From: Candidatus Latescibacterota bacterium
GTDB taxonomy: Bacteria > Latescibacterota > UBA2968 > UBA8231
DNA: 64,000 nt
Assembly: GCA_965215195.1 (NCBI GenBank)
Contig: CBDCDC010000002.1
Coordinates: 1,248,001 to 1,312,000 of the forward strand
Direction: 5' to 3'
A program made the position numbers and the translations under genes. Each line of letters opens with the position of its first letter. The stretch's first letter is position 1. Under the pieces are notes generated by a model. It was not told where the DNA came from. It did no database searches and worked only from the letters and a program-made list of their open reading frames with translations. This document shows positions 4,670 through 32,936 of this stretch, in pieces.

Positions 4670-4695
4670 CTACCGGAGAAAGGGAGTTAGCTCTG

Positions 4696-5567: not shown

Positions 5568-5568
5568 A

Positions 5569-7454: not shown

Positions 7455-7487
7455 AACCTGTCACTTACTACTCAAGGAATTATAGCT

Positions 7488-14326: not shown

Positions 14327-16093
14327 TTAGTTTCCCGCTGCGTCGTCTTCTACGGCTTGGTAGGCGACCAGCTCCCAGCCGTGAAACACAACGGCCAAGC
14401 CAATATGCCGCACCGACGGGGAGCGGTGCGGCAAGGACGAATCCGCCAAGTAGCCGCGCACCTGAAGCACGGCCTCCTGCACCTTGTCCGCCACAACGGA
14501 TTCGTCGAGGGTTTCGCTTCGTTTCAGGTACTTCAATTCCAACACATAGCCGAACCGCACGTCAGGGTACTGGGCGACAAACGGCTCCAAGTACAAATCC
14601 GCGTACCCCTTGTTCAGTTCATACTCCGAGTGCAGTAGAAAGTGGTTCACCATACTCAAGTGGGCGGCGACAAAGCCGTGGATCACCTTCTCGCCATCCA
14701 TGTAGTCGCGGATGCCGGTTTGCTCGGCGAGGGCATCGCGCAAAAAATCGAGAGGCGGCTGCCAAGCGCCACCGTAGGCCATCTGGCGCATCAGGCGGGA
14801 GAAGGTGTACACATCGACGGAGAACACCCCCACATCGTCGTAGGCATCGCGCAGGTAGCCGTACATCAGCCGCTTGACCGTTTGATTGGGAATGCCCAGC
14901 CGAGGCACCCCGTGCGCCACGGCGCGAATGCTGAGCAGGCCGAAGTAATACAGCAGGGACAGGAAGTTTTCGCGTTGGTCTAACTGTTCTAAGGGAAAGC
15001 TGACTTGGATAGTGCTTTCGGCGGTCTGCTCGCCGATGATGTGGCGCAGCAGGTCGAAGTTGCCGTTGAATTGCCGGTTGACCGTCAGCAGGTGGCGCAG
15101 CTTGCCGTAGTCGATGCGCACGTTGGTGTCGATCAACTCCCGCGGTCCCCGTTTGTTTGGCACGGATTTGTGTAAAAAGTAGAGGACCATGTCCGTGTTG
15201 TAGAGGTCACCCTCGATCTCCTCGGCGAAGCGATAGCCGTTGTACCACTCGCGCATCACCTCCAGCGCGGCTTCGACATCCTGATTGAACACGCCGTAAT
15301 CACGGTATAGCTCCAGCACCTCTCGCACCTCGGCCTCGGTGAAGCCGAGCATGTCGTTGAACTCTGGTTCCAAGCTGATGTTGCTGCCGATGTTAAAGCC
15401 GCTGGTGACGTCGTCCATGGTGATCGGCGACACCCCGGTGATGAACAACCGCTCCAAGCCGCCGCCGCTCTGCTCCGCGCCGACCTTGAGCGTGGCGAAG
15501 AAATTGCGATAAAAGCCGCCGCCGTGGGTGAAGGACTGGTACGCGGCCTCGCCGTGATAAGCCAGCACGGTGTTGGCGAAGTTGTCGTACTCGTCGATGA
15601 GCACGCATAGCCGAATGCCGTGGTCGCCAGCGTACAGGAACAGCTCGTTGAGCTGCCCAGTGACCGAGTCCGACGCACGGATGTATCGCCTCGCGGCCTC
15701 GGGAAACAAATCCGCATTGCGCTCCAGCGCATACCGGACCACCAGTTGACAATACTCTTCAAAGTGATGTTCGAGGGTTTCCAGCGCGTTTTTGAACGCC
15801 GAAAAGTTGAAACGCAGGACGACGTAGCGATGGCGGTTTTCGGTCGGCTGCTGCCCCAAGTCCGTACCGCCGAAGACGGTCTCGAATTCGTCGGCGCGGT
15901 TGCGGTCGTAGTAGTTCTCTAGCAAGGACACCCAGCAGGTCTTGCCAAAGCGTCGGGGACGAATGAGAAAGACGTAGCGTTCGTCTTCTAAGGCGTGGAC
16001 GAAGCGGGTCTTATCGACGTAGAGGCGGTTTTCCAAGCGGATGGCCCGAAAATCAGCCCAACCGTAGGGAATGCGGGGGTAGGATGCGGCCAT
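14327..16093 (-). CDS. AAA-ATPase-like + PD-(D/E)XK nuclease domain protein
   Basis: YVDKT, RPRRFGKT Walker A, LIDEYD Walker B, GYADL...LELK; start set at MAASYP by paralog. Confidence 0.9.
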   Translation of the reverse strand: MAASYPRIPYGWADFRAIRLENRLYVDKTRFVHALEDERYVFLIRPRRFGKTCWVSLLENYYDRNRADEFETVFGGTDLGQQPTENRHRYVVLRFNFSAFKNALETLEHHFEEYCQLVVRYALERNADLFPEAARRYIRASDSVTGQLNELFLYAGDHGIRLCVLIDEYDNFANTVLAYHGEAAYQSFTHGGGFYRNFFATLKVGAEQSGGGLERLFITGVSPITMDDVTSGFNIGSNISLEPEFNDMLGFTEAEVREVLELYRDYGVFNQDVEAALEVMREWYNGYRFAEEIEGDLYNTDMVLYFLHKSVPNKRGPRELIDTNVRIDYGKLRHLLTVNRQFNGNFDLLRHIIGEQTAESTIQVSFPLEQLDQRENFLSLLYYFGLLSIRAVAHGVPRLGIPNQTVKRLMYGYLRDAYDDVGVFSVDVYTFSRLMRQMAYGGAWQPPLDFLRDALAEQTGIRDYMDGEKVIHGFVAAHLSMVNHFLLHSEYELNKGYADLYLEPFVAQYPDVRFGYVLELKYLKRSETLDESVVADKVQEAVLQVRGYLADSSLPHRSPSVRHIGLAVVFHGWELVAYQAVEDDAAGN

Positions 16094-16195
16094 GGCGACT
16101 CCTAAGACGAATGAACGAGACTGAGCGTAACGATTGAGCAAAACAAGCGCAACGTACGCACGATTGGCCACATCGGCGATTCCCTTTTAACGCAC

Positions 16196-16388
16196 TACGT
16201 CCCTTTTGACGCACTTGCTCTAAACTATTGTAAAAATTTGAATTAGGCATCAAATAGCTCATCAGGTGCGTCGAAAGGGTGCAAAGAAAGCGCGATTCGG
16301 CGTCTTGTATGAAATACTCCAATTTCTTGTAACTCTTTGTATAACAATCAATTACGGATTTTCGGATCAGTTTGGCACGGAATGTGCT
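16196..16388 (+). promoter_or_regulatory. sigma-54 promoter 3 with enhancer boxes
   Basis: boxes 16196-16213 and 16267-16283; IHF-like 16342-16354; TGGCACGGAATGTGCT 16373-16388. Confidence 0.85.
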
Positions 16389-16591
16389 TATATAGTAGGT
16401 GAGCACGAAAGTAAGCCGTTGTTGGTCTCAGACGCTACGGCGCAGAGGCCGACGGGCAGGCTTTCCATTCACCCCATAAGAGGAGGGAATAATGAACCGC
16501 TTTATCAACATCCGCTCTCGCCTGCTTGGAGAAGGTCGGCTTTCGTGCCGCGCTGGTAGAGCCACCGTCAAGGTCGAGAAGACCTGTAGCC

Positions 16592-16765
16592 ATGACCCTG
16601 CACAAACCCGTGATCTACGGCTTGGCCATTGAAGCCGCGCAGGCATTTGCCGTTGTCGGCTGCTTTCCTTCTCGCGCTATGACGACACCTTTATCGTCAC
16701 TGCGTAGGACTATCCGTCAGGAAGTCCTTTCGAGACGCTCTTGGCGTCACCATTTGGTTCAATAG
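16592..16765 (+). pseudogene. degenerate upstream precursor paralog MTLHKPVIYGLAIEAAQ...
   Basis: homologous to 7281-7454, same length. Confidence 0.45.
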
Positions 16766-16797
16766 AACCAGTCACTTATTACTCAAGGAGTATATCC

Positions 16798-16938
16798 ATG
16801 ACCGCTCTGCACAAACCCGAACGCGCCACCTACGACCAAGCCGTTGAGGCCCAGCGGGAATTCAACAAGATCGAGATCATTGAGGATCCTCCTGGGCTTC
16901 ATTGCACTGGAATCGGCTCCCTCATCTGCTGCTGCTAA
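16798..16938 (+). CDS. Cys-rich precursor peptide 3 (46 aa) MTALHKPERATYDQAVEAQ-REFNKIEIIEDPPGLHCTGIGSLICCC
   Basis: AAGGAG RBS; C-terminal part of track ORF 16741-16938. Confidence 0.9.
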   Translation: MTALHKPERATYDQAVEAQREFNKIEIIEDPPGLHCTGIGSLICCC

Positions 16939-17099
16939 GGGGGCTCTGCTCTTCCCACTTGGTTCGATAGATCCGGACTCCTCACTTGAGGGGGTCTGAA
17001 CAATCGACCCAGCCGTAGATGAGACGAGTGGACCGAGGCCCATGGGCTTCGGTCCACTCCGTCGGACTTCAACGCCAACTCTCATCAGGAGGAATAGTT

Positions 17100-18281
17100 A
17101 TGAACAAGCGGACCCCTTTCATCGGGCTCGTCGGTGCCATGGTGCTGTTGGCCGGTTGCAGCGACGACCCACCCGCTGGCCCGCGTCGAGTGGAGATCGC
17201 CCCCCCAGCCGCCGACCTAACCTTCGACGAAGCCTTTGTCAAGGACCGGGACATCCACTTACACCTGCCGGAGGATGTCGCTTTAGGCGGGATTGGCTAC
17301 ACCTTGGTGGATGCCAAGGGCGATCTGATTGTTGGGGACCATATCCAAAAGACGGTTTTTCTCACCGATGCTGAAGGCCGTTACCTGCGGCAAATTGGAG
17401 CGCGGGGGGGAGGCGAAGGCGAGTACTTTTATATCGGGAGGCCGCGGTTAGCCCCCAACGGCGATCTCTATTTTCACAGCTTTGGAGCAAGCGATAAGTA
17501 CCTTTTCTTTGCGAGCGACTCCTATGCCTTTAAGCAGGAGGTGCCGGACCCGAACCCGCAACTGATTGACCAGATGGTGCTCACCGAAGGCGGCCATTGG
17601 TACGGCTCGCAGGTAGATGTCATAGATATAGGTGCTGTTGAGGTGCGAGAGGATGGCCAGTACGCGCTGTTCCGCTTCGACGACCACTTCAATAAAGTCG
17701 TTGACCTGTATCCGGTCGAAGACAAACGAACCGGGCGGGCGTTGAATCGCTACCACAACACCGTGCTCACACCCAAGCGGGGGGGCGGCTTCTACTTCAT
17801 CTATCCGACCACCTACGAAATCCACCAATACAGCGAGCAGGGCACGTTAGAACAGACTTGGTTCAGCGAGTACAAGTCCAAGCATCGGGATGGGATCAAG
17901 CCTTTCCCCGCCGACTTGAATCCGGTCAATTGGACCCCTCGGCACGGCGAGTGGTTTGCTGAGCACATTGTCCGTTCCCGCCTCTATGAATTCGGTCCCG
18001 ACCTGCTGGTGCTTACCCAATACCGGTCGGTGTTCAAGGGCAAGGTCCGCGGCAAGCCGGAATACTATTTGAACCTCTTTTACAAGGACGGCTATTCGGC
18101 CGCCGACGGCATTAGATTACCCGCAGATCATAGGATGCTGACGGTCGCCGGCACGGAGTGGTATTTCGCCATCGAGGGTGCGTTTGACGAGGCGACCGGC
18201 GAGACGAGCGATCCGCACATAGCCGTCTATCGGCTCAATGACCGCGAAGGGGCCGGCAAGAGAGCGTTCAGCCGCTCGTAG
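17100..18281 (+). CDS. beta-propeller lipoprotein 3
   Basis: AGGAGG RBS, LAGC lipobox, paralog. Confidence 0.85.
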   Translation: MNKRTPFIGLVGAMVLLAGCSDDPPAGPRRVEIAPPAADLTFDEAFVKDRDIHLHLPEDVALGGIGYTLVDAKGDLIVGDHIQKTVFLTDAEGRYLRQIGARGGGEGEYFYIGRPRLAPNGDLYFHSFGASDKYLFFASDSYAFKQEVPDPNPQLIDQMVLTEGGHWYGSQVDVIDIGAVEVREDGQYALFRFDDHFNKVVDLYPVEDKRTGRALNRYHNTVLTPKRGGGFYFIYPTTYEIHQYSEQGTLEQTWFSEYKSKHRDGIKPFPADLNPVNWTPRHGEWFAEHIVRSRLYEFGPDLLVLTQYRSVFKGKVRGKPEYYLNLFYKDGYSAADGIRLPADHRMLTVAGTEWYFAIEGAFDEATGETSDPHIAVYRLNDREGAGKRAFSRS

Positions 18282-18316: not shown

Positions 18317-18958
18317 ATGAATGCCACTAAGCTAGCAAAAGTGCTTCTGCTGTTGTCCCTCGGCCTCGGCTCGGTCGCCTTGGCCCTCCACCAAGACAAC
18401 ACCGACAGACGCGACGAGTTGGGCGCACTTAATCAAAGGCTGAAACACTTGGAAACCGTCCAATGGAACTACGAGATCAACGCCGCCCTCAAGGAGAAAC
18501 TACACCGCAAGCTGATCCAATCGGTGGACTTAGGCCGATTCGCCAAGTTCGATGAGTCGGCTGCCGGGGACGGTAAACCCTTTGTCGTCGTCGTATCGAC
18601 GAGTCGGACGTGTGGAGCATGCCTGTTTACCCAACTTGACCAGTGGAAACAGGCTATGACTCAAAGGGGCGTCTCCCACGGCAAGCTGCTGCTGGTCCTA
18701 GGCGACGCCAACGAGCCCCTCAAGCACCAAATCGCCCTCAAGCACAAGGTCGGCATCGTGCCCTTCGCCTTCACCTTCGTGGCTGAGCAGCAACTCGATG
18801 CGCTGCTGTTCCAGTCCGATGCCCGGTCGTCGGTGCCGGTCTCGTTTGTCGTGGACGACGCCTTTCATGTCCTCAACTGGCACTATAGCGACAAAGGAGA
18901 CGAAGAAGCGACAGAGCAATGTATCCAAGATTGGCTGGACCGGTACTTCACCTCGTAA
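18317..18958 (+). CDS. thioredoxin-fold protein 3 (CGAC)
   Basis: paralog of 9047/13671. Confidence 0.8.
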   Translation: MNATKLAKVLLLLSLGLGSVALALHQDNTDRRDELGALNQRLKHLETVQWNYEINAALKEKLHRKLIQSVDLGRFAKFDESAAGDGKPFVVVVSTSRTCGACLFTQLDQWKQAMTQRGVSHGKLLLVLGDANEPLKHQIALKHKVGIVPFAFTFVAEQQLDALLFQSDARSSVPVSFVVDDAFHVLNWHYSDKGDEEATEQCIQDWLDRYFTS

Positions 18959-19271: not shown

Positions 19272-19498
19272 CCCTTTTAACGCACTACGTCCCTTTTGAC
19301 GCACTACGTCCCTTTTGACGCACTTTCTCTAACCTGTTGTAAATAAAGCCAGATAGAAGCAATATAGAACATTAGGTGCGTCGAAAGGGTGCAGTTGAAG
19401 CGCGATTCGGCGTTTGGTTTGCGATGCCCCAATTTTTTGTAACTCTCTGTATAACAATTAGTTATGGTCTTGTAGATCAGCTTGGCACGGAATCTGCT
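19272..19498 (+). promoter_or_regulatory. sigma-54 promoter of the maturation/export operon, with tandemly expanded enhancer box
   Basis: 19-bp unit CCCTTTT(G/A)ACGCACTACGT repeated nearly three times at 19272-19324; box 19377-19393; TGGCACGGAATCTGCT 19483-19498. Confidence 0.85.
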
Positions 19499-19576
19499 AA
19501 GTGTAAAAGTAGGCCCTAGCCGCTAAGGAGCGGAATTGACGGGCAGATTTTCCACACTCATAAGAGGAGGTCAACC

Positions 19577-19707: not shown

Positions 19708-20424
19708 ATGAAAAACATGGCGCGGAACATCTCCCTGCTCGTCAATGCGTTCCTCCTGCTACTCATTGCCACTGGCACCCTGTGGGCACTGAAAGAGCTG
19801 CACCGGCAAGACCCGACCGAGGCCGAGCGGCTGGTGAAGGAGAAGACCTACTTCAAGGACTACCTCAACAGCAGCGTCCAAGCTTCGACCAAGCTGGGCC
19901 TGAAATTCCCCGTCATTGAGATGACAGATATCAAAGGCCGGCCTTTGAGCACGGATTTCTCCAAGACCCAAAAGGGAGGAATCGTCGTCGTGCTCAGCCA
20001 ACTGGCGTGCCAGCCCTGCCTCAAGCCGCAGATGCAGATCCTGCAGCACATCTACGAGCGTCTCGCCGATCCGGAGGCGATGCCCATTTACTGCATCGCC
20101 AGAATGAGCGAGCGGAAGTTTTCGGACTATGTGCGGACGTTCCAGATCACTTTTCCGGTTGCGTCGGACACGACCGGGTACTTCAACGAGACGCCTTTTG
20201 GCGAACCGACCCCGGCCGTATTTGTAATTGACGAGAACAACACGGTCGTCAACGTCCATATCCCCGTGCAGGAGAAGCCGCACCTTTCGGTCATTTTCTA
20301 CAACGAGTTGAAGCCTTGGTTCGACTTGGCCAAGCCGCTCGCTTTCAAGTTCAAAGGCGTGAAGTACTACGACGTCATCACCAACAAGGCCGATTTGAGC
20401 TCGGTCAAGCACTTGCTCTACTGA
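19708..20424 (+). CDS. membrane-anchored redoxin/AhpC-TSA-like protein (CQPC)
   Basis: N-terminal TM, LACQPC, TPAVFVID. Confidence 0.8.
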   Translation: MKNMARNISLLVNAFLLLLIATGTLWALKELHRQDPTEAERLVKEKTYFKDYLNSSVQASTKLGLKFPVIEMTDIKGRPLSTDFSKTQKGGIVVVLSQLACQPCLKPQMQILQHIYERLADPEAMPIYCIARMSERKFSDYVRTFQITFPVASDTTGYFNETPFGEPTPAVFVIDENNTVVNVHIPVQEKPHLSVIFYNELKPWFDLAKPLAFKFKGVKYYDVITNKADLSSVKHLLY

Positions 20425-20455: not shown

Positions 20456-22186
20456 ATGATAGTCAAGGAATTTGCCATGCGCTTCGCCCGGTACATCAAA
20501 CCGTACTGGTGGCAAAGTTCAATCGTATTCGCCTTCATGGTCTTGGCAACGGCCAGTTCGCTCGCCTTCCCCTATATCCTGATGGTCCTCATCGACGAGG
20601 CCCTGCCCGACGAGGACTACTATTTATTGGGCATCCTGCTGGCCACGCTATTCGGTATCATCGTCTTGAACATAATCAGCGTTTTTATTGCCGAGTATCT
20701 GTATCGCTGGGTCGGCAACCTCGTCGTGTTTGAGATGCGGAGCGAGTTGTTCAGCCACCTGCTGCGCCTGCCGCTAAGTTTCTTCAAACGCAACAAGACC
20801 GGGGATATCGCTCACCGGCTCAACAACGATGTGCAGATCGTCCAGAAAACGCTCACTTCCGGCGTACTGAAGCTCATCAACAGCGTGCTGACTTTGGTCA
20901 GTTTGGGGGCGGTGCTGATATGGCTAGACGCTCCCCTTTTCTTTGGCCTGAGCCTGCTCGTGCCCTGCTTCATCGTGAACCTCAAGTACTTCCAGCCCAA
21001 AGTAGGCAAGGTGGCCGAGGCAACCCAACACAAGACTTCGGATATACTGGGGTTTTTTATCGAGCGTTTCGACAACATCAAACTCGTCCAGTCGTACAAC
21101 ACATACCGACACGAGAGCGACAAGTTGGGCCGACGACAGAGTGAGTTGTTCGATCTGGAAATGCGTAGCACTGCGTTGAATCTTTCCGCTGGTTCCATCG
21201 CGTCCTTTATCATGTCCTTGGCTCCTGTTGTCATCCTCGGTTGGGGAGGGCATCAAGTCATGCAGGGCGCACTCGGCTTGGGGGCGCTAATCGCCTTTTT
21301 CCAATACTTCATGCGCATTTTCGGACCCTTGGAGAGCCTGAATCAACTGTACATAGATTGCGTCCGGGCGTCGGTTTCTCTGCGGCGAATTGTGGAATTC
21401 ATGGACGTACCGGCGGAGGTTGACGCAGAGCCGGAGCGGGCCAAACCCTTCTCGTTCAAGAATAAGATAGTGTTCAAAGGCGTGGATTTTGCCTACAACG
21501 GGCACCCTGTACTCAGCCGTTTTGATTTGGAGATTGAAAAGGGCAAGACCTACGCGCTCGTCGGGGCGAGCGGTTGCGGCAAAAGCACGGTTGTCGATCT
21601 GTTGTGCCGTTTTTACCAGCCGCAAAAAGGCGAGATCGCCATAGACGACGCGCCTTGCCGGGCCTTTGGTCTGGGCAAGTACCGGGACCGCATCGGCTTG
21701 GTGTCGCAAGAAGCGCAACTCTTCCGCGATTCGGTGCTCGAAAACATACGCTATGGCCGGTTGGAAAGTTCCAAAGAAGAGATCGAACGCGCGGCCGAGG
21801 AACTCGATATCAACGGTGCAGCCATCCACGCGTCCGAGGACTCCTTGGCGACGGTATGCGACTCCAAAGCCAACCTGTCGGGTGGACAGAAACAGCGGAT
21901 AGCCCTAGCGAGGGCCGTGCTGAAAAACCCCGAGATCATCGTACTGGACGAGGCGACTTCAGCTCTCGACTCGGAGAGCGAGGAGAAGCTGTTGCGCCGG
22001 CTCAAGGGCCAAGCCGACGACAAGACGGTCATCATCGTCAGCCACCGGCTCAGTGCCGTTAGGGAGGTCGATGAGATCGTCTGCATGGACGAGGGGAAAA
22101 TTGTCGAGAAAGGCACTCATGCCGAATTGATGGAGAAAAAAGGCCACTATTGGGAACTGTTCAAAACCCAGATTGCGAACAATTAA
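20456..22186 (+). CDS. ABC exporter, fused permease/ATP-binding (no C39 domain)
   Basis: TM domain, GASGCGKS, LSGGQKQR, LDEATSALD. Confidence 0.95.
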   Translation: MIVKEFAMRFARYIKPYWWQSSIVFAFMVLATASSLAFPYILMVLIDEALPDEDYYLLGILLATLFGIIVLNIISVFIAEYLYRWVGNLVVFEMRSELFSHLLRLPLSFFKRNKTGDIAHRLNNDVQIVQKTLTSGVLKLINSVLTLVSLGAVLIWLDAPLFFGLSLLVPCFIVNLKYFQPKVGKVAEATQHKTSDILGFFIERFDNIKLVQSYNTYRHESDKLGRRQSELFDLEMRSTALNLSAGSIASFIMSLAPVVILGWGGHQVMQGALGLGALIAFFQYFMRIFGPLESLNQLYIDCVRASVSLRRIVEFMDVPAEVDAEPERAKPFSFKNKIVFKGVDFAYNGHPVLSRFDLEIEKGKTYALVGASGCGKSTVVDLLCRFYQPQKGEIAIDDAPCRAFGLGKYRDRIGLVSQEAQLFRDSVLENIRYGRLESSKEEIERAAEELDINGAAIHASEDSLATVCDSKANLSGGQKQRIALARAVLKNPEIIVLDEATSALDSESEEKLLRRLKGQADDKTVIIVSHRLSAVREVDEIVCMDEGKIVEKGTHAELMEKKGHYWELFKTQIANN

Positions 22187-22202: not shown

Positions 22203-24140
22203 ATGAATACCAATGAGAAGTTGCAGACGCTCGACTTTACCCGTTTGACCGGACGCGGGGTCAAGGTCGCGGTAGTTGACAGCGGTATTGAACCCAATCA
22301 TCCCAAGATCGGCCCTATTGCCGGCGGAGTTGGTTTATATGCGCTTGCCGAGGGCGGTATCCAACGCGAGGACGATTTCTCTGACCGGGCCGGTCACGGT
22401 ACGGCCTGCGCGGGCATTATCCGCAAACTGGCCCCGGAAGCCGAACTCTACGGGGTACGCGTTTTTGACGAGTCTCTGACCACGGATGGGCAGTCGCTGG
22501 TCGCAGCCGTTGCTTGGGCCATAGAAGAGGGCATGGACGTAGTCAATCTCAGTTTAGGGACGATTGACCCCGCGTACAAGAGGCCCTTGGCGGAGATATG
22601 CCGCAAGGCCGTGGAAGCCAATCTGATTCTGGTGGGTTCCCAGCACAACGAGGGCATGGAAAGCTATCCAGCGGAATTAGCCGACGTAATCGGCGTCACT
22701 TGGGGAAAAATCTACGACCGCTACGGGTACTACTACCGGCGCGGGCAGGCCATTGAGTGCGTGGCGCGGGGCGATCAGCAGCGTCTGTGCTGGCTGGACG
22801 GAGGAGAGACGATCACCGGCGGAACCAGTTTTGCCGCGCCCCACATAGCGGGGATTGTCGCCTTAATCCGCCAACGCTTTCCCGGAGCGGGGTTGACCCA
22901 AGTACGGGAGATTTTGGCGGCAAATGCCTTAGAGTCGGAGGGGCCTGTCGCGTCGGATATCGCTGTCGAACGGCCGGGTTTTCCCAGCTACGAGTGGATC
23001 GACCGGGCGGCCCTGTATCCGTACAACAAGGAAATGCACGCGCTGGTGCGCCACGCGAAGCATTTGCATTTCACCATCGCTGGCATCGCCGATCCGGTCG
23101 GCAAAGGTCTGGTCGGCAAGGACGCCGGCGAGGCTATTGGCGTTGAGCCGTTAGGTGTGCGCATTGTCCCCAAACTCGAGGACGCGCTACGGGGAGCCGA
23201 TACCCTCGTGTTGGGGTACGTCGATCAGCTATCTCAGTTGAGCAAAAAGGACTTGCTGCGCGAGGCCATACAGACGGCGTTGGAGCGGGGGCTCAATGTG
23301 TTCAGCTTCCTAGCGGTTGATCCAGAGACCTACGCCGACTTGTACGATTTGGCGCAGAGCAAGGGGTTGCGTTTGGAGTTCCCGGATTTCGATTTCGCCG
23401 ATGTCCAAAGGTGCCTTGCAGCCCAAGGCTCCGAGCGCACCGTGGATGTGCCGGTGGTCGGGGTTTTCGGCACGAGCTCCCAACAGGGCAAGTTCACCTT
23501 GCAACTCGCATTGCGGCAAAAGCTGATTGAGCAAGGATACACAGTTGGTCAACTGGGCACCGAGCACCATTCGGCCCTGTTCGGGATGGATTTTTCCTTC
23601 CCCATGGGCTACGCCGCGCCCAGAGACCTGCCGTTGCAATACTACGGTCCGTACTTAGACCACAAGATGCGCGAGATTAACGCGGCGAAAAAACCGGATA
23701 TCATCTTAGTCGGCTGTCAGTCGGGCACCATACCCTATGATGTCGCCAACCACAACTCCCATACCGAGCCGTCGATCCACTTCCTGTTGGGGACCAAACC
23801 AGACGCCTGCATTTTAGTGGTCAACAGCACGGATTCGGATGCGTATATCCAAGACACCATGGATGGCATACGCATATTGGGCAAAGCCCCGGTCGTATTG
23901 CTGGCGATGAGCGACAAGGAGAAACACGCCCGGTCGGTCTATGGCAAAACTTGGGTTTCCTCTCGTCAGATGAGCGAGGGTGAGATAAAGGGCCACTTGG
24001 AGCGCTTAGAGGCTTCGTTTGGCTTGCCAGTGGTGGCGATTGTTGCCGAGGAGGGGCAGCAGCGAATGGTCGATATTGTCGTCAACCATTTTGCCGCAGA
24101 GAGTCGGCCAGCGTCCGAAGAGATTAAAAAGGCCGGGTAG
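22203..24140 (+). CDS. S8 (subtilisin) peptidase fused to DUF1611/TIGR04066-like domain
   Basis: VAVVDSG / GHGTACAG / GTSFAAP triad; C-terminal YPYNKE, GKDAG, GTSSQQGKFTLQLALR...GYTVGQLG; no signal peptide. Confidence 0.85.
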   Translation: MNTNEKLQTLDFTRLTGRGVKVAVVDSGIEPNHPKIGPIAGGVGLYALAEGGIQREDDFSDRAGHGTACAGIIRKLAPEAELYGVRVFDESLTTDGQSLVAAVAWAIEEGMDVVNLSLGTIDPAYKRPLAEICRKAVEANLILVGSQHNEGMESYPAELADVIGVTWGKIYDRYGYYYRRGQAIECVARGDQQRLCWLDGGETITGGTSFAAPHIAGIVALIRQRFPGAGLTQVREILAANALESEGPVASDIAVERPGFPSYEWIDRAALYPYNKEMHALVRHAKHLHFTIAGIADPVGKGLVGKDAGEAIGVEPLGVRIVPKLEDALRGADTLVLGYVDQLSQLSKKDLLREAIQTALERGLNVFSFLAVDPETYADLYDLAQSKGLRLEFPDFDFADVQRCLAAQGSERTVDVPVVGVFGTSSQQGKFTLQLALRQKLIEQGYTVGQLGTEHHSALFGMDFSFPMGYAAPRDLPLQYYGPYLDHKMREINAAKKPDIILVGCQSGTIPYDVANHNSHTEPSIHFLLGTKPDACILVVNSTDSDAYIQDTMDGIRILGKAPVVLLAMSDKEKHARSVYGKTWVSSRQMSEGEIKGHLERLEASFGLPVVAIVAEEGQQRMVDIVVNHFAAESRPASEEIKKAG

Positions 24141-24169: not shown

Positions 24170-24420
24170 TGTCGACTGGATTGAACTGATCGCTGGCGGT
24201 CTTCTGCTGTTAGACATTTGGCCGCGCAGCAATGCGTTGGTCGTGTTCGGGCTATTGGTGGTTTTCAGCACGGCACTGGGCATCAATATGTACCGCGGCA
24301 ACGATGTGACGTGCGGTTGTTTTGGGGGCGACGGAGGAGCTTCGCTGACTTGGACTTTGTTGCGCGACCTACTTTTGGCGGGGGAGCTATGGTGCTGCTG
24401 GTGCGGAAGGAGCAGAAAAA
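24170..24420 (+). pseudogene. MauE/DoxX 3' remnant
   Basis: closely matches ~5319-5565 (CGCFG) with frameshift. Confidence 0.8.
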
Positions 24421-24482
24421 TACTACACGACGGAGCCACCATTCAAGATGGAATCCAACGGATGTGCCGGAGGTTATAGACC

Positions 24483-24969: not shown

Positions 24970-25098
24970 ATGAATGCCGCTAAGGTGCCCGTTTCGTTTG
25001 TCGTGGACGACGCCTACTGGCACTATAGCGACAAAGGAGACGAAGAGGCGACGGAGCAGTGTATCCAAGACTGGCTGAACCGGTACTTCACTTCGTAA
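24970..25098 (+). pseudogene. thioredoxin-fold gene with large in-frame deletions (42 aa)
   Basis: MNAAK joined to VPVSFVVDDAYWHYSDKGDEEATEQCIQDWLNRYFTS. Confidence 0.8.
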
Positions 25099-25121: not shown

Positions 25122-26882
25122 TTAGTGTCCCGCCGCATCGTCCACCGCTTGATACGCAACCATCTCCCAGCCGTGAAACACCACCGCCAAGCCAATATGC
25201 CGCACCGACGGGTGGCGGCGGCGCAGGGACGGGTCTGCCAAATAGCCGCGCACCTGAAGCACGGCCTCCTGCACCTTGTCCGCCACAACGGATTCGTCGA
25301 GCGACTCGCTTCGTTTCACATACTTCAGTTCCAACACATAGCCGAAACCCACGTCAGGGTATTGGGCGAGGAACGGCTCCAAATACAAATCCGCGTACCC
25401 CTTGTTCAGTTCGTACTCCGAGTGCAGTAGAAACTGATCCACCAGGCTCAAGTGGGCGGCGACAAAACCGTGAATCACCTTCTCGCCATCCATGTAGTCG
25501 CGGATGCCGGTTTGCTCGGCGAGGGCATCGCGCAAAAAATCCAAGGCCGGCCGCCAAGCGCCGTCGTAGGCCATCTGGCGCATCAGACGGGAGAAGGTGT
25601 ACCCATCGACGGAGAACACGTCCACATCGTCGTAGGCATCGCGCAGGTAGCCGTACATTAGCCGCTTGACCGTTTGATTGGGAATGCCCAGCCGGGGCAC
25701 TCCGTGCGCCACGGCGCGAATGCTGAGCAGGCCGAAGTAATACAGCAGGGACAGGAAGTTTTCGCGTTGGTCTAACTGTTCTAGCGGAAAACTGATTTGA
25801 ATGTCACTCTCGGCGGTCTGCTCGCCGATGATGTGGCGCAGCAGGTCGAAGTTGCCGTTGAGTTGGCGGTTGACCGTCAGCAGGTGGCGCAACTTGCCGT
25901 AGTCGATGCGCACGTTGGTGTCGAGCAATTCCCGCGGTCCCCGTTTGTTCGGCATGGATTTGTGTAAAAAGTAGAGGACCATGTCGGTGTTGTAGAGGTC
26001 GCCCTCGGCCTCATCGGCGAAGCGATAGCCGTTGTACCACTCGCGCATCACCGCCAGCACGGCTTCGACATCCTGATTGAACACGCCGCAGTCGCGGTAT
26101 AGCTCCAGCACCTCCCGCACCTCGGCCTCGGTGAAGCCGAGCATGTTGTTGAACTCTGGTTCCAAGCTGATGTTGCTGCCGATATTGAAGCCGCTGGTGA
26201 CGTCGTCCATGGTAATCGGCGACACGCCGGTGATGAACAACCGCTCCAAGCCGCCGCTTCGCCCGGCTCCGGCCTTCAGCACGGCAAAAAAATTGCGATA
26301 GAAACCACCACCGTGGGTGAAGGACTGGTAGGCTTCGGCCCCGCGATGCGCCAGCACGGTGTTGGCAAAATTGTCGTACTCGTCGATGAGCACATACAGC
26401 GGAATGCCATGGTCACCCGCGTACAGAAACAGCGCGGCGAGCTTGGCGTCAATGGAGGGCGGCGAGAGAATGCGTTGTCTCGCCTCTTGGGGAAACAGAT
26501 CTCGATTGCGCCTGAGTGCGTGGTCGAGTTCCAAGTGACAGTACATCTCAAAGCGTTCCCGCAGGGTTTCTAAGGTGTCATCGAACGCCGAAAAGTCAAA
26601 GCGCAGGACGACGTAGCGATGGCGGTTTTCCGTCGGCTGCCGCCCCAAATACGTGCCGCCGAAGATAGCCTCAAATTCATCGGCGCGGGTGCGGTCGTAG
26701 TAGTTTTCCAGCAGGGACACCCAGCAGGACTTGCCAAAGCGACGCGGACGAATCAGAAAGACGTAGCGTTCCTCTTCTAAGGCGTGGACAAAGCGGGTCT
26801 TATCGACGTAGAGGCGGTTTTCCAAGCGGATGGCGCGGAAATCAGCCCAACCGTAGGGAATGCGCGGGTAGGATGCGGCCAT
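25122..26882 (-). CDS. AAA-ATPase-like + PD-(D/E)XK nuclease domain protein (paralog)
   Basis: same motifs as 14327-16093. Confidence 0.9.
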   Translation of the reverse strand: MAASYPRIPYGWADFRAIRLENRLYVDKTRFVHALEEERYVFLIRPRRFGKSCWVSLLENYYDRTRADEFEAIFGGTYLGRQPTENRHRYVVLRFDFSAFDDTLETLRERFEMYCHLELDHALRRNRDLFPQEARQRILSPPSIDAKLAALFLYAGDHGIPLYVLIDEYDNFANTVLAHRGAEAYQSFTHGGGFYRNFFAVLKAGAGRSGGLERLFITGVSPITMDDVTSGFNIGSNISLEPEFNNMLGFTEAEVREVLELYRDCGVFNQDVEAVLAVMREWYNGYRFADEAEGDLYNTDMVLYFLHKSMPNKRGPRELLDTNVRIDYGKLRHLLTVNRQLNGNFDLLRHIIGEQTAESDIQISFPLEQLDQRENFLSLLYYFGLLSIRAVAHGVPRLGIPNQTVKRLMYGYLRDAYDDVDVFSVDGYTFSRLMRQMAYDGAWRPALDFLRDALAEQTGIRDYMDGEKVIHGFVAAHLSLVDQFLLHSEYELNKGYADLYLEPFLAQYPDVGFGYVLELKYVKRSESLDESVVADKVQEAVLQVRGYLADPSLRRRHPSVRHIGLAVVFHGWEMVAYQAVDDAAGH

Positions 26883-26984
26883 GGCGGCTCCTCAAACGAG
26901 GGGATGGTCCTGAGCGTAACGATTGAGCGCAACCAGCGCAACGTGTGCATGGCTGCCGCAGCGGCGAGCGCACTTTTAACGCAC

Positions 26985-27177
26985 TACGTCCCTTTTGACG
27001 CACTTGATCTAACCTATTGTAAAGACGTGAGATAGGCGCAAAGTGGAGCATTAGGTGCGTCGAAAGGGTGCAATCACAGCGCGATTCATCATCTTGTATG
27101 AAATACTCCGATTTCTTGTAACTATTTGTCTATCAGTCAGTTATGTCTTTTTAAGTCGGTTTGGCACGGAATGTGCT
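26985..27177 (+). promoter_or_regulatory. sigma-54 promoter 4 with enhancer boxes
   Basis: boxes 26985-27002 and 27056-27072; TATCAGTCAGTTA 27131-27143; TGGCACGGAATGTGCT 27162-27177. Confidence 0.85.
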
Positions 27178-27590
27178 TATATAGTAGGTGAGCACGAAAG
27201 TAAGCCGTTGTTGGTCTCAGACGCTACGGCGCAGAGACCGACGGGCAGGCTTTCCATCCACCCCATAAGAGGAGGGAACAATGAACCGCTTTTATCAACA
27301 TCCGCTCTCGCCTGCTTGGACAACGGCTCGCTCTCGTGCTGCGCTGGTAGAGCCATCGTCAAAGTCGAGAAGGTATGTAGCCATGAGCCTGCACAAGTCC
27401 GTGATCTACGGCCCGGCCATGCGAAGCCGCGCAGGCATTTGCCGCTGTCGGCTGCTGTTCCTTCTCGCGCCATGACAACGCCTTTACCGGCATCACTTAG
27501 GGCTACCCATCAGGAGGCCCTGTCGCGACGCCCTTGGCGTCACCACTTGGTTCGATAGAACCACCTACTTATTACTCAAGGAGCATAGCT

Positions 27591-27722
27591 ATGATCGCTC
27601 TGCACAAGCCCGAACGCGCCACCTACGGCCAAGCCGTCGAGGCCCAGTATGAATACCAGAACATGGTATGCGACGCATATGATGCTAGGTGCTGGGATCC
27701 GGGGCACAGAAGGTGCTGCTAG
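27591..27722 (+). CDS. Cys-rich precursor peptide 4 (43 aa) MIALHKPERATYGQAVEAQ-YEYQNMVCDAYDARCWDPGHRRCC
   Basis: AAGGAG RBS; C-terminal part of track ORF 27534-27722. Confidence 0.9.
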   Translation: MIALHKPERATYGQAVEAQYEYQNMVCDAYDARCWDPGHRRCC

Positions 27723-27933
27723 GGAGAACAAACTTCGCGACGGCCCGGCTGTCACCACTTGGTTCGATAGAACCTCTCATCCTTGACTAAGCGGGCCGTT
27801 GACTCTGGCGAGTAGGCCGTGGGTCTCAGCGAACACGGTCTACTCCGCCGGCCTTCGGACTCTGAAAGATCGTAGTTCCTTTAGTCCATTCATTGGTATG
27901 GGTCAGACACCAACCATTCACAGGGAGGATGCT

Positions 27934-29049
27934 ATGAACAAGCGGATACATTTTATCGCGGGCGTCGGCACTATGGCGCTATGCGCCGGGTGCAGCGACG
28001 TGCCAGAAGGCCGGATAGAGATTACCCCGCCAGCGGCCGATCTTGCCTTCGACGAGACGTTCGTCAAGGACCGGGACATTCATCTCAACATGCCCGAAGG
28101 CGTCGTTTTGGGCAGAATCGGCCACATGGTAGTCGATTCCAAAGGCAATCTCATCGTTAGGGACCCTATTCAGGATATAGTTTTCCAGACCGATGCTGAG
28201 GGCCATTACTTGCGGCAGATCGGGGCACGAGGGGGAGCAGAGGGCGAGTACTTCATGGTCCTCAAGATACTGCTGGCCCCAAACGACGATCTCTATATCC
28301 ACAGTGCAGGGGAAGGCATGAAGTATCTAGTCTTTTCCGGCGACTCATATACGTTCAAGCGGGAGGCTCCAGACCCTAACCCTGCGTACGTTGACCATGT
28401 CATATTCACCGCAGGAGGCAACATATACGCCTCGGAAGTGGACAGCGAATACGCCCTGTCCCGCCTCGACGACCACTTCAATAAGGTGGACCGCATGTAC
28501 CCTGTCCAAGACACGCGGACAGGACAGGCGCTGAACCGCTTCCACAACACCGTCCTTACTCCCAAGAGGGGAGGTGGCTTCTACTTTATGTATCCGACCT
28601 CCTACGAGATTTACCAATACAGCGAGCAGGGCGAGTTGGAACAGACCTTGTTTAGCGACTACCGCTCCAAGCATCGGGACGGGATCAAACCCTTTCCCCC
28701 CAACTTGAACCCGTACGATTGGAATCCCAAAATTGAAGCGTGGTTCGCCGAGCACATCGTCCGCAGCCAGCTTTTTGAATGCGATCCCGACTTGCTGATC
28801 CTCAAGCAATACAGGCGGGAGGTGGGCGGCGAGTGGAAATACTATCTAAACATCCTAGACAAGGACGGCCATTCGATCGCCGATGGGATCAGCGTACCCG
28901 CCAAGCACACACCGCTGACGGTTGACGGCCGTGAGTTGTATTTCGAGGTAGAGGGCGCGTTCGACGAGGAGACCGGCAAGGTAGGCGATCCGTATGTAGC
29001 TGTCTATCGGCTCGCCAATGATCGCAAAGTAGCCTTTAGCCGCTTGTAG
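27934..29049 (+). CDS. beta-propeller lipoprotein 4
   Basis: GGAGG RBS, CAGC lipobox-like motif, paralog. Confidence 0.85.
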   Translation: MNKRIHFIAGVGTMALCAGCSDVPEGRIEITPPAADLAFDETFVKDRDIHLNMPEGVVLGRIGHMVVDSKGNLIVRDPIQDIVFQTDAEGHYLRQIGARGGAEGEYFMVLKILLAPNDDLYIHSAGEGMKYLVFSGDSYTFKREAPDPNPAYVDHVIFTAGGNIYASEVDSEYALSRLDDHFNKVDRMYPVQDTRTGQALNRFHNTVLTPKRGGGFYFMYPTSYEIYQYSEQGELEQTLFSDYRSKHRDGIKPFPPNLNPYDWNPKIEAWFAEHIVRSQLFECDPDLLILKQYRREVGGEWKYYLNILDKDGHSIADGISVPAKHTPLTVDGRELYFEVEGAFDEETGKVGDPYVAVYRLANDRKVAFSRL

Positions 29050-30820: not shown

Positions 30821-32935
30821 ATGATACGCCTCCGCAACATGCAGCGCCTCTGGGTGCGGCTGCTGGGCAATCACCTAATCGTCGGGCTGGTGCCCGTGCT
30901 GTTGGCGGCTGGTGTGCTCGTGTACACGGCGCGCAGTGCGCTAGAGCAGGCCGTGCTCGACAGCCACCAGCAGGTGGCCCGGCGGGCGGCCAAGGAGATT
31001 CACCATTTCCTCGCACAGCCCATCGCCAGCCTCAAGGTGCTGGCCCAAAGCATGAACGTGGTCCGCGACCCGTGGCGGCGGCAGAGCCTGTTGAGTCAGG
31101 TGGGGTTGGAACTGAGTGCGGTGGCCGAACTTTGCTTTGTGGATACGAGCGGCGCGATCCAAGCCACCAACATGCTCGATGTCCACGCTCCGCTCCAGCG
31201 CGGTGGACGGCTGCCGCCCGATTATCTGCCTCACGCCCGGGTACTGTGGGCGCAGGTGAAGCGGGAGGAATTCTACGCTTCCGAAGTGGTCCAGCACGAG
31301 GGGCAACCGAGCCTGTTTATCGGCTTGGCCGTGAAAGAGGCCGATAAAGTAGTCGGTGCTTTGATCGCCCGTTTTGCGCTGTACGAAATTTGGCAGCAGG
31401 TGGACCAGATTCGGCTGGGAGATACCGGGCGCGGGGTGCTTTTGGACGCGAGGGGCCGCTATATTGCCTTTCCCGCCCGCCAAGACATCTATCTCGACGC
31501 CCCACATCCCGAATTTGTACCGCACATAAGCGGGAATGGCACTCGGCAATGGCGCGACATCGAGGGACGCGAGTGGGTGGCGGGCTTTGCGTACATTGCG
31601 GACTGGGGCTGGACCGTGGTGGTGCAGCAGGAGGCGCAAGAGGCGTTTGGGCTGGTGGCCATGATGCAGTACCGCGCCAACTGGATCATCGTCGCCTCGG
31701 TGGCCGGTGCCATTTTGCTGGGCTTGGTGCTGTTGCGGTCCATCACTCGGCCCATCAATCGGCTGATGCACACCGTGCGGGCCGTGCAGGCCGGCGAGGC
31801 GTTTGCCCTAAAGTTGCCGGCTATAAAGGACGAATTGTGGGAGTTGGGGCAGGCGTTTACCGAAATGAACCAAGCCCTCGAAGCCCGCAAGGCGGAACTG
31901 GAGGCCGAACTCAACTTCAGTGACCGGCTGATCGAGGACAATCCCCTCGCCATCGCGGTGGTGGACCAACAGCAGCGAACCGTGCGGGTGAACAAGGCTT
32001 GGCACCAGCTCTTTGGCGAAGGCGGGGCCGGCCCTTGGGAACACACGCCCGCGGGCCAGCAGCTTTGGGACTGGATCAAAAGCAACCCCAAGACGCGGGA
32101 GGCCGACAACTTGGAGATCGAGTCCCCGCAGGGCGGCACCCGGTTTTGGAACCTGAAGGTCTTAGACTTGGAGGGGGCCTTGCCCGGGCATCTGTTGTTA
32201 GTGGTGGACGACCAGACTCAGCGCAAACTTTTGGAACTTCACTACGTTCAGGCCGAGAAGCTGGCCGCCCTCGGCGAGATGGCCGCGGGCGTGGCGCACG
32301 AGATCAAGAATCCGCTGGCGATCATCCGGCACGCCTACGAGCTGCTGGCGCAGATTGTCCCGCAGGAAGTGGAGGGGCGCGACCAAGCGCTCAGGCCCCT
32401 CGGCGCGGCTATCGGCCGGATCGATGAACGAGTGGTCAATCTGCTCGACTTTGCCCGACCCGCCCAGCAGGTGCAGGAGTTGGTTGACCCAACGGGCATC
32501 CTCCGGCAACTGGTCGATCTCGAACAGAAACACGCCGAGCACCTTGGCATCGCCATTGAGGTCCGTCTGCACGCGGTGCCGCCGGTGTGGGTGAATCGGG
32601 ACATGCTCAAGGATGTTTTTCTCAATTTGATTAGCAACGCGTTTGCGGCCATGCCCGATGGCGGCAAGTTGCTGATTTCGGCCGCGCAGCGGGACGATTG
32701 GGTGGTGGTCGGGGTCGGCGATACCGGGGCGGGCATTTCCCCAAAGCACCTCCGGCAGATATTTGAGCCGTTTTACTCGACCAAGCCGCCGGGGCAGGGC
32801 ACGGGGCTGGGATTGGCCATCGTCCACCGGCAAATACAGGAGATCGGCGGCCGGATTGAGGTCGAAAGCGCGCCGGACCAAGGCACGCGCTTTTCGCTAT
32901 ATCTACCTACGGCAAACCCAGAGAGGAACGATTGA
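30821..32935 (+). CDS. sensor histidine kinase (Cache-like, HAMP, PAS-like, HisKA/HATPase)
   Basis: two TMs, AHEIKNPL, NLISNA, DTGAG, GTGLGL. Confidence 0.92.
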   Translation: MIRLRNMQRLWVRLLGNHLIVGLVPVLLAAGVLVYTARSALEQAVLDSHQQVARRAAKEIHHFLAQPIASLKVLAQSMNVVRDPWRRQSLLSQVGLELSAVAELCFVDTSGAIQATNMLDVHAPLQRGGRLPPDYLPHARVLWAQVKREEFYASEVVQHEGQPSLFIGLAVKEADKVVGALIARFALYEIWQQVDQIRLGDTGRGVLLDARGRYIAFPARQDIYLDAPHPEFVPHISGNGTRQWRDIEGREWVAGFAYIADWGWTVVVQQEAQEAFGLVAMMQYRANWIIVASVAGAILLGLVLLRSITRPINRLMHTVRAVQAGEAFALKLPAIKDELWELGQAFTEMNQALEARKAELEAELNFSDRLIEDNPLAIAVVDQQQRTVRVNKAWHQLFGEGGAGPWEHTPAGQQLWDWIKSNPKTREADNLEIESPQGGTRFWNLKVLDLEGALPGHLLLVVDDQTQRKLLELHYVQAEKLAALGEMAAGVAHEIKNPLAIIRHAYELLAQIVPQEVEGRDQALRPLGAAIGRIDERVVNLLDFARPAQQVQELVDPTGILRQLVDLEQKHAEHLGIAIEVRLHAVPPVWVNRDMLKDVFLNLISNAFAAMPDGGKLLISAAQRDDWVVVGVGDTGAGISPKHLRQIFEPFYSTKPPGQGTGLGLAIVHRQIQEIGGRIEVESAPDQGTRFSLYLPTANPERND

Positions 32936-32936
32936 C

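Follow-up and report, generated by a model that had tools for sequence, protein, structure and literature searches.

We analysed a 64,000-nucleotide stretch of DNA from a Candidatus Latescibacterota bacterium, referred to here as the window, with the focus on a gene at 22203 to 24140 of the forward strand, which in a stop-free frame encodes a 645-amino-acid fusion of an S8 protease with a DUF1611 domain. Pfam and NCBIfam matches, homologs and a structural model all support this architecture. In the list of open reading frames (ORFs) the frame opens at a TTG at 22173, and the form that begins with the ATG at 22203 is covered over 100% of its length by close homologs of 643–649 amino acids. The main new result is that a gene for an acyl carrier protein (ACP) lies directly downstream of most homologs of the fusion gene. 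We tentatively propose that the fusion protein is a cytoplasmic two-domain peptide maturase whose products are cut, acylated in an ACP-dependent step and exported, an account that we consider just short of probable.

The fusion protein and its family

The Peptidase_S8 domain occupies residues 17–243 (22251 to 22931) and was recognised by Pfam well above the cut-off (PF00082, E = 6.5e-28, 98.3 bits against 21.8). In NCBIfam the top match of the N-terminal half is QhpE (NF049966; 1.2e-41, 142.4 bits, model positions 1–212 of 219), a score that stays under the cut-off considered below, and the Foldseek matches of the full-length model are all subtilisins (subtilisin BPN', E = 9.2e-18, TM(target) 0.74). 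The catalytic triad D26/H65/S209 is invariant in 33 of 33 aligned homologs, and the oxyanion residue N149 is kept in at least 90% of them. As read from the translation, the catalytic Asp stands already at residue 26, too early for a signal peptide or an I9-type propeptide to precede it.

A linker of about residues 244–267 (22932 to 23003) follows, which differs in length among homologs and falls below 50 in predicted local distance difference test (pLDDT) at residues 248–259. Beyond it, residues 268–631 (23004 to 24095) comprise the Rossmann-like DUF1611_N (PF17396, residues 303–390, 9.5e-10, 39.1 bits against a cut-off of 22.6) and the P-loop DUF1611 subdomain (PF07755, residues 407–620, 2.2e-16, 60.3 bits against 25) with its invariant GTSxQQGKFT. 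The top NCBIfam match of this half is TIGR04066, aligned nearly end to end (residues 268–631, model positions 2–360 of 361, 4.3e-38), again with a score under the cut-off. About 80 positions of the DUF1611 half are very highly conserved in the 33-homolog alignment; the P-loop residues G423, T424, Q428, G429, K430, F431 and T432 do not vary at all, and the motifs YPYNKE, GKDAG and GTSSQQGKFTLQLALR..GYTVGQLG all lie within conserved blocks.

The full-length AlphaFold model has a pLDDT of 86.7 and a predicted template modelling score (pTM) of 0.58, indicating two well-folded domains whose mutual position is uncertain. Modelled alone, the C-terminal 383 residues reach a pLDDT of 86.8 and a pTM of 0.85, and in VIA-align they superpose on DUF1611-type structures, namely the two from structural genomics, 2g0t (Z 30.2, root-mean-square deviation (rmsd) 3.0, 312 residues aligned), 2obn (Z 29.7, rmsd 2.5, 312 aligned) and 7xrj, annotated 'N-acetyltransferase DgcN' (Z 25.1, rmsd 3.9, 304 aligned), the next-best fold match following at Z 14.8. 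Foldseek E-values of this model to DUF1611-type structures are 7.6e-16 and 1.6e-12, the latter for 7xrj. In the range of Z 13–15 the P-loop half resembles dethiobiotin synthetases, NTPases of the MinD/ParA/ApbC type and CTP synthase, while the first subdomain resembles Rossmann folds of the amine dehydrogenase or DHDPR type. In a profile search of the PDB the whole protein returned a flood of subtilisins and the C-terminal profile matched 2g0t only, a structure that the fusion also matched in phmmer (2.7e-7); the likeness to DgcN was seen by fold comparison and not by the PDB profile search. With both Pfam domains above their gathering scores and the two-subdomain fold of 2g0t and 2obn, the C-terminal half is a DUF1611 member. 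The first-pass annotation of the gene, made from the letters alone, had described the complete triad, the lack of a signal peptide or obvious propeptide, the three motifs and a second domain related to DUF1611/TIGR04066, and on each of these points the alignments and the models bear it out; the refuting condition it had set, a C-terminal domain without kinship to DUF1611/TIGR04066, does not apply.

The protein is no curiosity of one genome. A search of 5.8 billion protein clusters, formed at 90% identity, returned at least 638 clusters related to the fusion among 8000 scored candidates; PF00082 and PF07755 are both present in all 120 relatives among the matches listed, and the names given to relatives are 'S8 family serine peptidase' or 'uncharacterized NAD-dependent epimerase/dehydratase family protein'. 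In a one-genome-per-species collection, 123 stretches encode a relative, and 78 loci were kept (67 from Latescibacterota, 8 of Gemmatimonadota type and 1 from KSB1). Half of the Latescibacterota genomes have a match at E ≤ 1e-50 (84 of 168; 25 of the 52 of high quality), with up to seven matches in a single genome and one copy in the genome of the window itself. We found no study dealing with the fusion, or with the function of TIGR04066, in the full-text literature, a search in which most subscription journals were not covered. The fusion family is thus large and unnamed, and it is the conserved core of a widespread, unstudied gene cluster in uncultured Latescibacterota.

Several apparent variants of the gene were considered. 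Several matches of 30–40% identity were flagged as carrying one internal TGA, which raised the possibility of selenocysteine; this was rejected, as in eight of eight aligned homologs of this kind the TGA follows the conserved last helix and is a stop codon that the search had read through, and a further TGA in L086 falls early in the extracted frame, ahead of the likely start codon. Homologs in frames of about 900–1100 amino acids suggested a longer, Rosetta-stone type of fusion, which was likewise dismissed: the extra length in L089 is an upstream extension of a GC-rich frame and adds no domain. A search for shorter homologs returned mostly fragments at contig ends. In a few genomes (G103, G105, G121, G047, G082 and G101) the two halves are adjacent frames, through either a frameshift or a true split.

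Carrier-protein linkage and precursor peptides

Neighbouring genes were counted around 79 fusion genes in 78 public loci, excluding the two loci of the window's own genome (L001 and L002), by searching the mechanical six-frame ORFs of all loci against the window proteins and representatives from other loci, with nine loci checked by Pfam. An ACP gene lies directly downstream of 57 of the 79 fusion genes (on the same strand, starting −120 to +400 nucleotides from the stop codon), and most of these adjoining genes overlap the fusion stop or sit within about 30 nucleotides of it. Five of the 22 fusion genes that have no ACP gene in this position are at a contig end, and counted anywhere in the locus an ACP accompanies 63 of the 79. 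De novo clustering of small ORFs across loci recovered the same ACP family (52 loci) and yielded no universal precursor family, since precursor cores are too variable. Of 71 aligned ACPs from fusion loci, 70 have the serine that carries phosphopantetheine. All four ACPs that were scanned fit generic ACP models better (e.g. 5.7e-18) than TIGR04069, which was matched weakly by one of them (17.8 bits against a cut-off of 70).

A BtrH_N-like gene is present in the locus of 50 of the 79 fusion genes and an ATP-binding cassette (ABC) exporter in that of 52. An alignment of 38 BtrH-like proteins comprises 27 matches to BtrH_N (PF14399), 15 to DUF4872 and 14 to Peptidase_C39_2 in Pfam, and NCBIfam calls one relative 'BtrH-related acyltransferase DarH'. 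Two subtypes can be told apart: one combines BtrH_N with DUF4872 and has an invariant Cys/His/Asp set (15 of 15), and the other, to which the protein in the window belongs, has Ser/His/Asp with Ser at the place of Cys. The fusion and an ACP occur without a BtrH-like gene in at least 11 of the loci that have full 10-kb flanks (L013, L015, L020, L030, L033, L035, L039, L053, L059, L072 and L080).

Other frequent neighbours are HlyD, Rce1-like CPBP proteases, TPR proteins, redoxins, rhodanese, MauE, DUF5128 propellers, glycosyltransferases and AraC-type response regulators. In many clusters unlike that of the window (L012, L014, L018, L027, L036, L046 and others), one to four genes for Rce1-like CPBP intramembrane proteases lie together with TPR proteins between the exporter and the fusion, and these may be immunity or processing factors. 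The KSB1 locus (L067:2-10188) has a setting of its own: fusion and ACP lie between a radical S-adenosylmethionine (SAM)/SPASM gene and two GNAT genes, surrounded by an epimerase/dehydratase, a DegT aminotransferase and a DAHP/NeuB-type synthase.

The window itself holds four small ORFs that we read as precursor peptides, at 7488 to 7628, 10890 to 11030 and 16798 to 16938 (46 amino acids each) and at 27591 to 27722 (43 amino acids), all on the forward strand. They have in common the leader M-x-A-L-H-K-P-E-R-A-T-Y-x-Q-A-V-E-A-Q and Cys-rich cores that end in CC, and a ribosome-binding site (AAGGA or AAGGAG; repeat family D20) lies 6–8 nucleotides upstream of each ATG. At E ≤ 0.1 the four match no Pfam or NCBIfam family apart from one chance-level Pfam match; this includes NVEALA, whose small proteins adjoin DUF5128 lipoproteins in Bacteroidota and which had offered a lead. 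Seventy-six unnamed database proteins of similar size match the precursor profile. Across 51 aligned database relatives M1, L4, K6, R9, Y12, Q14, A18 and Q19 are invariant, no double-glycine site is found, and in at least 90% a Glu and then Tyr or Phe follow after one or two variable residues past the leader. A conserved Glu near the start of the core, which the first-pass annotation had also pointed out, stands two to three residues past AVEAQ in all four window precursors and in all 12 sequences of alignment A4.

Leaders of this kind recur outside the window. In 16 of 79 sources there are matches to M-x(0-4)-[LIVM]-[HC]-K-(K)-P-x-[RH], 21 in all on the strand of the fusion gene and none on the opposite one, and a leader profile at E < 0.1 detects 22 of 79 sources, six of them outside the set from which it was built. 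The precursors in other loci are 70–150 amino acids long, some are free of Cys, many are the ORF right after the ABC gene, and their leaders end in (A/N)-V-(L/I)-A-Y or I-E-A-C followed by x-x-(D/E). An LHKPxR or LCKPxR leader, with VLAY or IEAC and then an acidic residue, precedes far longer and strongly differing cores, some of them free of Cys and Gly/Ala-rich, at L014:6453-6839, L018:5881-6243, L027:4283-4735, L043:12953-13180, L045:184-618, L046:1942-2355, L048:12937-13155 and 16293-16547, and elsewhere. As far as can be judged from sequence, one leader family serves several product types. The fusion and the ACP are the components most consistently common to these otherwise varied clusters, which would make them the natural readers of the shared leader.

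Co-folding of the whole fusion (33-row alignment) with precursor 1 (12-row alignment) scored 0.51 against 0.00 for the best control, a result classed as weak support; at least 66% of contacts agree between runs and the precursor has a pLDDT of at least 47. In the benchmark of this procedure, 116 of 157 solved complexes attained the mark, as did 2 of 215 mismatched pairs; at scores of up to 0.60, however, it was attained by only 18 of the 157 solved complexes, together with both of the passing mismatches.

Cluster organisation and upstream elements

The system in the window spans about 4.4–29 kb, in the order ACP, rhodanese, MauE, BtrH-like gene, three modules, redoxin, ABC exporter, fusion, remnants and a fourth module, and the genes that follow are on the forward strand unless stated otherwise. 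The ACP (4409 to 4669) has 86 amino acids with the phosphopantetheine Ser in a DS motif (PF00550, E = 3.7e-7, 30.7 bits against a cut-off of 20.8). It is followed by genes that family scans assign to a rhodanese-domain protein (4666 to 5142) and a MauE/DoxX membrane protein (5097 to 5567), the MauE type being linked with the disulfide-rich subunits of methylamine dehydrogenase, and by the BtrH_N-like gene (5566 to 6624, in a frame open from 5464), placed in the Ser/His/Asp subtype by alignment with its relatives. This protein is 33–42% identical to 22 other Ser-subtype members, with 77% to one of them (alignment A5). The order of these four genes is the same in L003.

Upstream of the fusion, a redoxin/ResA-like thiol-disulfide oxidoreductase (19708 to 20424; family scan) opens the operon that continues with the ABC exporter (20456 to 22186), whose 576 amino acids unite permease and ATPase and whose gene ends 17 nucleotides before the fusion gene. 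Family scans found only ABC_membrane (23–292) and ABC_tran (354–502) in the exporter, and its alignment to C39-bearing models starts only at about model position 143–163, which means that the peptidase domain is absent, as the first-pass annotation had stated.

Each module consists of a precursor, a DUF5128 lipoprotein and a CxxC protein, and the module is present four times with 72–92% DNA identity. Family scans place the DUF5128 genes at 7966 to 9030 (a six-bladed beta-propeller protein, also covered by repeat families D1 and D2), 11277 to 12386, 17019 to 18281 and 27799 to 29049, the last three as propeller lipoproteins. The CxxC genes are at 9047 to 9682 (membrane-anchored, 211 amino acids, no family match), 13671 to 14306 and 18317 to 18958, the latter two drawn from the ORF list and family scans; module 4 has no intact CxxC gene. 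Module 2 alone contains an inserted FGE-sulfatase (SUMF1/EgtB-like) domain protein with a signal-like N-terminus (12512 to 13498; family scan), which could modify Cys of the module 2 peptide. Between modules 1 and 2 lies an ORF of 152 codons (9841 to 10299) that has two CxxC pairs and no family match and may be what is left of a zinc-ribbon transposase.

Just downstream of the fusion gene are a MauE remnant (24237 to 24479, 80 codons, PF07291 1.4e-8) and the remnant of a CxxC 3' end (24970 to 25098, repeat family D17, 93% identity), which resemble leftovers of a rearrangement by which the maturase was parted from the ACP, MauE and BtrH-like genes now at 4409 to 6624. On the reverse strand, AAA-ATPase_like plus PDDEXK_9 genes occur in three copies, one of them truncated (14327 to 16171, 25122 to 26882 and 3477 to 4217; repeat families D5, D12, D14, D16 and D18). 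Each copy directly follows a CxxC gene or CxxC fragment with which it converges, an arrangement found likewise in L006 and L007, and these genes may be mobile or may drive module duplication. Taken together, the module copies, the AAA-ATPase_like genes and the remnants point to recent rearrangement.

A non-coding element of about 400–600 nucleotides precedes each precursor (6869 to 7487, 10458 to 10889, 16182 to 16797 and 26971 to 27590), with copies 72–92% identical, and part of it recurs at 19342 to 19499 before the redoxin-ABC-maturase operon. At the same position of the element, before all four precursors and this operon, stands the sigma-54-like −24/−12 motif TGGCACGGAAT(G/C)TGC. It reads TGGCACGGAATGTGC about 425–432 nucleotides before each of the four precursor start codons, and in the fourth copy of repeat family D10, at 19483 to 19497 and 225 nucleotides before the operon, TGGCACGGAATCTGC. 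This placement implies a long leader of about 425 nucleotides on precursor transcripts. In the whole window nine such motifs were found against 6.15 expected, and 14 of 100 shuffles reached nine, so that their number is not above chance; only the identical placement of five of them in the repeated element carries weight. Rfam gave no match at the gathering score in 3000 to 30000, so the element is a member of no known RNA family. The region 30821 to 34322 encodes a sensor kinase and a sigma-54 activator, with the activator at 32763 to 34322.

Other features of the window lie outside the system. An AcrB-type resistance-nodulation-division (RND) transporter is found as two abutting ORFs, 377 to 1876 (499 amino acids) and 1877 to 3535 (552 amino acids), which cover model positions 6–486 and 671–1020; a frameshift, an error of assembly or a truly split gene could account for this. 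Bases 4–18, ahead of these ORFs, hold a perfect sigma-54 consensus. A tandem paralogous nucleotidyltransferase/HEPN gene pair and a Schlafen AlbA_2/HATPase_c_4 gene (60411 to 62132 and 50333 to 51796, both on the reverse strand) are defence- or toxin-antitoxin-like and have no tie to the fusion.

A putative maturation route and its alternatives

The closest parallel for the protease half comes from the qhp operon, where the cytoplasmic subtilisin-like protease QhpE is reported to cut a 28-residue leader from the Cys-rich QhpC before export by the ABC transporter QhpF (PMC7876137). What the window has in common with that pair is a minimal, propeptide-less cytoplasmic subtilisin beside a peptidase-less ABC transporter, together with a small Cys-rich peptide, and by analogy a cytoplasmic cut followed by C39-less export would fit the order of events for QhpE and QhpF in that source. 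QhpE, however, lacks both a fused DUF1611 domain and an ACP partner, and the score of our protein lies below the QhpE cut-off. No substrate of the QhpC/QhpD type and no radical SAM or QhpC-like gene was present among the window ORFs scanned, and the candidate substrates are the AVEAQ-leader peptides instead.

For the second half, NCBIfam itself offers a parallel, as it names TIGR04066 (nat_prod_clost) a 'peptide maturation system protein' and TIGR04069 a 'peptide maturation system acyl carrier-related protein'. In the corresponding CLI_3235-type cassettes of Clostridia a DUF1611-related protein is thus paired with an ACP-related protein in what the NCBIfam names describe as a peptide maturation context, whereas the DUF1611 domain in the window is fused to a protease, the scanned ACPs of the fusion loci fit generic models far better than TIGR04069, no radical SAM gene was found among the window ORFs scanned and the window precursors match no family; only L067 has an adjacent radical SAM/SPASM gene. 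TIGR04066 matched none of 14 control genomes. DgcN (7xrj), of D-glutamate catabolism, has the same two-subdomain fold and, alone among DUF1611 members, has been assigned a reaction, the transfer of an acyl group to an amine, but it is only about 21% identical to the fusion domain, stands alone and acts on a free amino acid, with neither protease nor ACP as a partner.

The combination of a small, dedicated ACP with a BtrH-like protein also recalls BtrI/BtrH of butirosin biosynthesis and DarH, where a papain-like BtrH_N transacylase carries an ACP-bound acyl group to its acceptor, in line with the BtrH_N, DUF4872 and DarH_acyl matches in fusion loci; the acceptor in those systems is an aminoglycoside or a resorcinol rather than a peptide, and they have no S8 or DUF1611 enzyme. 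In the butirosin system the loader of the ACP is an ATP-grasp ligase. Leader removal and acylation, sometimes with an ACP-bound donor, are combined in acylated ribosomal peptides such as the lipolanthines/goadvionins and the selidamides. Those systems use GNAT acyltransferases with polyketide or fatty acid synthases, none of which was found in the window cluster, and here the candidates would be DUF1611 and BtrH_N proteins. The general logic of leader proteolysis and acyl-transfer maturation of ribosomal peptides is already known, and what would be new is its execution by enzymes so far without an assigned part in it.

Cutting followed by acylation is a plausible scheme for the fusion protein. 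The QhpE-like S8 domain would recognise the LHKPxR ... AVEAQ leader and cut at or just after AVEAQ, generating a new N-terminus, as homology and context suggest. A role of the S8 half as leader peptidase is probable because QhpE is its top match, because the adjoining exporter has no C39 domain, because the shared leader co-occurs with the fusion and because co-folding lends it weak support. Next, gene linkage and fold suggest that the DgcN-like DUF1611 domain could take an acyl group from the phosphopantetheine thioester of the ACP and transfer it to an amine of the cut peptide, while the BtrH-like protein may load the carrier or make a second transfer. The fusion would set this transferase right beside the amine that the protease has newly freed. 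Finally, the exporter is predicted to move the product to the periplasm, where redoxin, MauE, rhodanese, the CxxC proteins and the DUF5128 lipoproteins could handle its cysteines.

The first-pass annotation had envisaged a related 'cut and cap' maturase that removes the leader and acylates the new N-terminus, with the conserved Glu as a candidate acceptor, and had called for co-folding with the leader. Its protease half agrees with the QhpE match, the exporter, the leader family and the co-fold, and its acylation half gains from the ACP in 57 of 79 and the BtrH-like gene in 50 of 79 cases; what weakens the latter is the marginal sequence likeness to DgcN. We would sharpen the idea by naming a private ACP, not free acetyl-CoA, as the donor, a version favoured by the ACP linkage, by the TIGR04066/TIGR04069 pairing and by a fold relative, DgcN, that transfers acyl groups to an amine. 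Confidence differs between the parts: that the DUF1611 domain is functionally tied to the ACP is the claim we hold most firmly, as quite probable, while the specific assignment of N-acylation of the cut peptide to this domain is possible without being probable. The Glu, in turn, is an unlikely acceptor, as a carboxylate is chemically a poor one. The conservation of an acidic residue across distant leader types fits better either a P' recognition residue of the protease or, less likely, a carboxylate activated by the P-loop domain.

Several observations speak against the proposed route. The fusion is a member of Peptidase_S8 and DUF1611, and by NCBI thresholds it is not QhpE, TIGR04066 or DgcN: its 142.4 bits miss the QhpE equivalog cut-off of 165, its 131.2 bits (133.2 in a second search) miss the TIGR04066 cut-off of 200 despite the full-length alignment, and the match to DgcN (NF041892) is partial, with 29 bits against a cut-off of 480 (E = 4.8e-7). 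DgcN moreover uses acetyl-CoA, and BtrH-type enzymes are themselves ACP-to-amine transferases, so that the second domain of the fusion need not be one. The ACP in the window does not adjoin the fusion gene, lying about 17.5 kb upstream of it, and none was detected in L004, L005 and L006, close relatives of the window; the window and L003–L007 form the one clade with a non-adjacent ACP. The BtrH-like protein of the window matched no Pfam family, family scans of the window ORFs revealed neither an acyl-ACP synthetase or ketosynthase nor any other evident supplier of acyl groups, leader-type precursors are found in only 22 of the 79 sources, and the verdict on the co-fold is 'weak support', with no interface given. 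The gene content of L067 looks more like amino-sugar modification than peptide maturation. Finally, the Walker-A-like loop, which is invariant, suggests that the ligand is a nucleotide or CoA, and this fits a loading or ligase role no less well than transfer from an ACP.

This last point leads to the main rival, which parallels the carrier protein and transferase of butirosin biosynthesis and which we consider unlikely: the DUF1611 domain would charge the ACP, from acyl-CoA or from free acid and ATP in the manner of dethiobiotin-synthetase-like ligases, and the BtrH-like protein would transfer the group to the peptide. The loop is invariant, the next-best folds of the P-loop half (Z 13–15) are dethiobiotin synthetases, CTP synthase and MinD/ParA-type NTPases, and BtrH_N-family proteins with a conserved Cys/His/Asp or Ser/His/Asp set, one relative of which is named an acyltransferase, occur in 50 of 79 cases; yet at least 11 fully flanked loci have fusion and ACP but lack a BtrH-like gene, the one DUF1611 enzyme that has been characterised bears the annotation of an N-acyltransferase and not of a ligase, and a loader fused to a protease has no evident rationale. 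The same fold kinship with the carboxylate-activating dethiobiotin-synthetase class, combined with a Glu or Asp two to three residues past the leader end in very different precursor types, would also accommodate an ATP-dependent activation of this Glu or another carboxylate to give a lactam, an isopeptide or an ACP thioester rather than a simple N-acyl cap. We regard this as improbable, as the acidic residue may simply be recognised by the protease at P', no result indicates a particular amine partner, and we know of no precedent within DUF1611 for carboxylate activation on a peptide.

Roles might also be distributed differently among the proteins. The papain/C39-like BtrH_N protein could remove the leader while the S8 domain trims, self-processes or degrades, or the DUF1611 domain could be a non-catalytic nucleotide- or leader-binding module from which the exporter receives the peptide, with the ACP unrelated. 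Peptidase_C39_2 is matched by 14 of 38 BtrH-like proteins, the exporter has no C39 domain of its own and the inter-domain geometry of the fusion model is uncertain (pTM 0.58), but the subtype in the window has Ser replacing Cys, the precursors have no double-glycine site, and a non-catalytic role would leave unexplained both the roughly 80 conserved positions of the DUF1611 half and the tight, often overlapping ACP gene; we hold this to be slightly more improbable still. Least credible, and very improbable in our view, is an acyl module that acts not on ribosomal peptides but on a sugar, a lipid or an amine of the cell envelope, as BtrH does on an aminoglycoside, with some other purpose for the protease. 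The epimerase, DegT aminotransferase, GNATs and NeuB/DAHP-type gene around the fusion and ACP of L067, along with glycosyltransferases in several loci, are what one would then expect to see; set against them are an exporter, HlyD and leader-type precursors that recur across loci, a promoter motif common to precursors and operon, and the co-fold with precursor 1, weak as it is.

If the fusion does act as a maturase that cuts and then acylates, the DUF1611/TIGR04066 family would gain a second assigned role, and the 'peptide maturation system' of TIGR04066 and its ACP-related partner, catalogued by NCBI, would be explained. The protease would in addition be a cytoplasmic leader protease with a clear recognition motif, useful for peptide engineering. 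More broadly, and as a possibility that we still find doubtful, DUF1611/TIGR04066 proteins could represent a new class of carrier-protein-dependent peptide-modifying enzymes, which, fused to a QhpE-like protease, may define an unrecognised family of ribosomal peptides from uncultured phyla, with a leader of its own (LHKPxR...VLAY/AVEAQ-x-E), present in roughly one of two Latescibacterota genomes, frequently as several copies, and in Gemmatimonadota and KSB1 as well.

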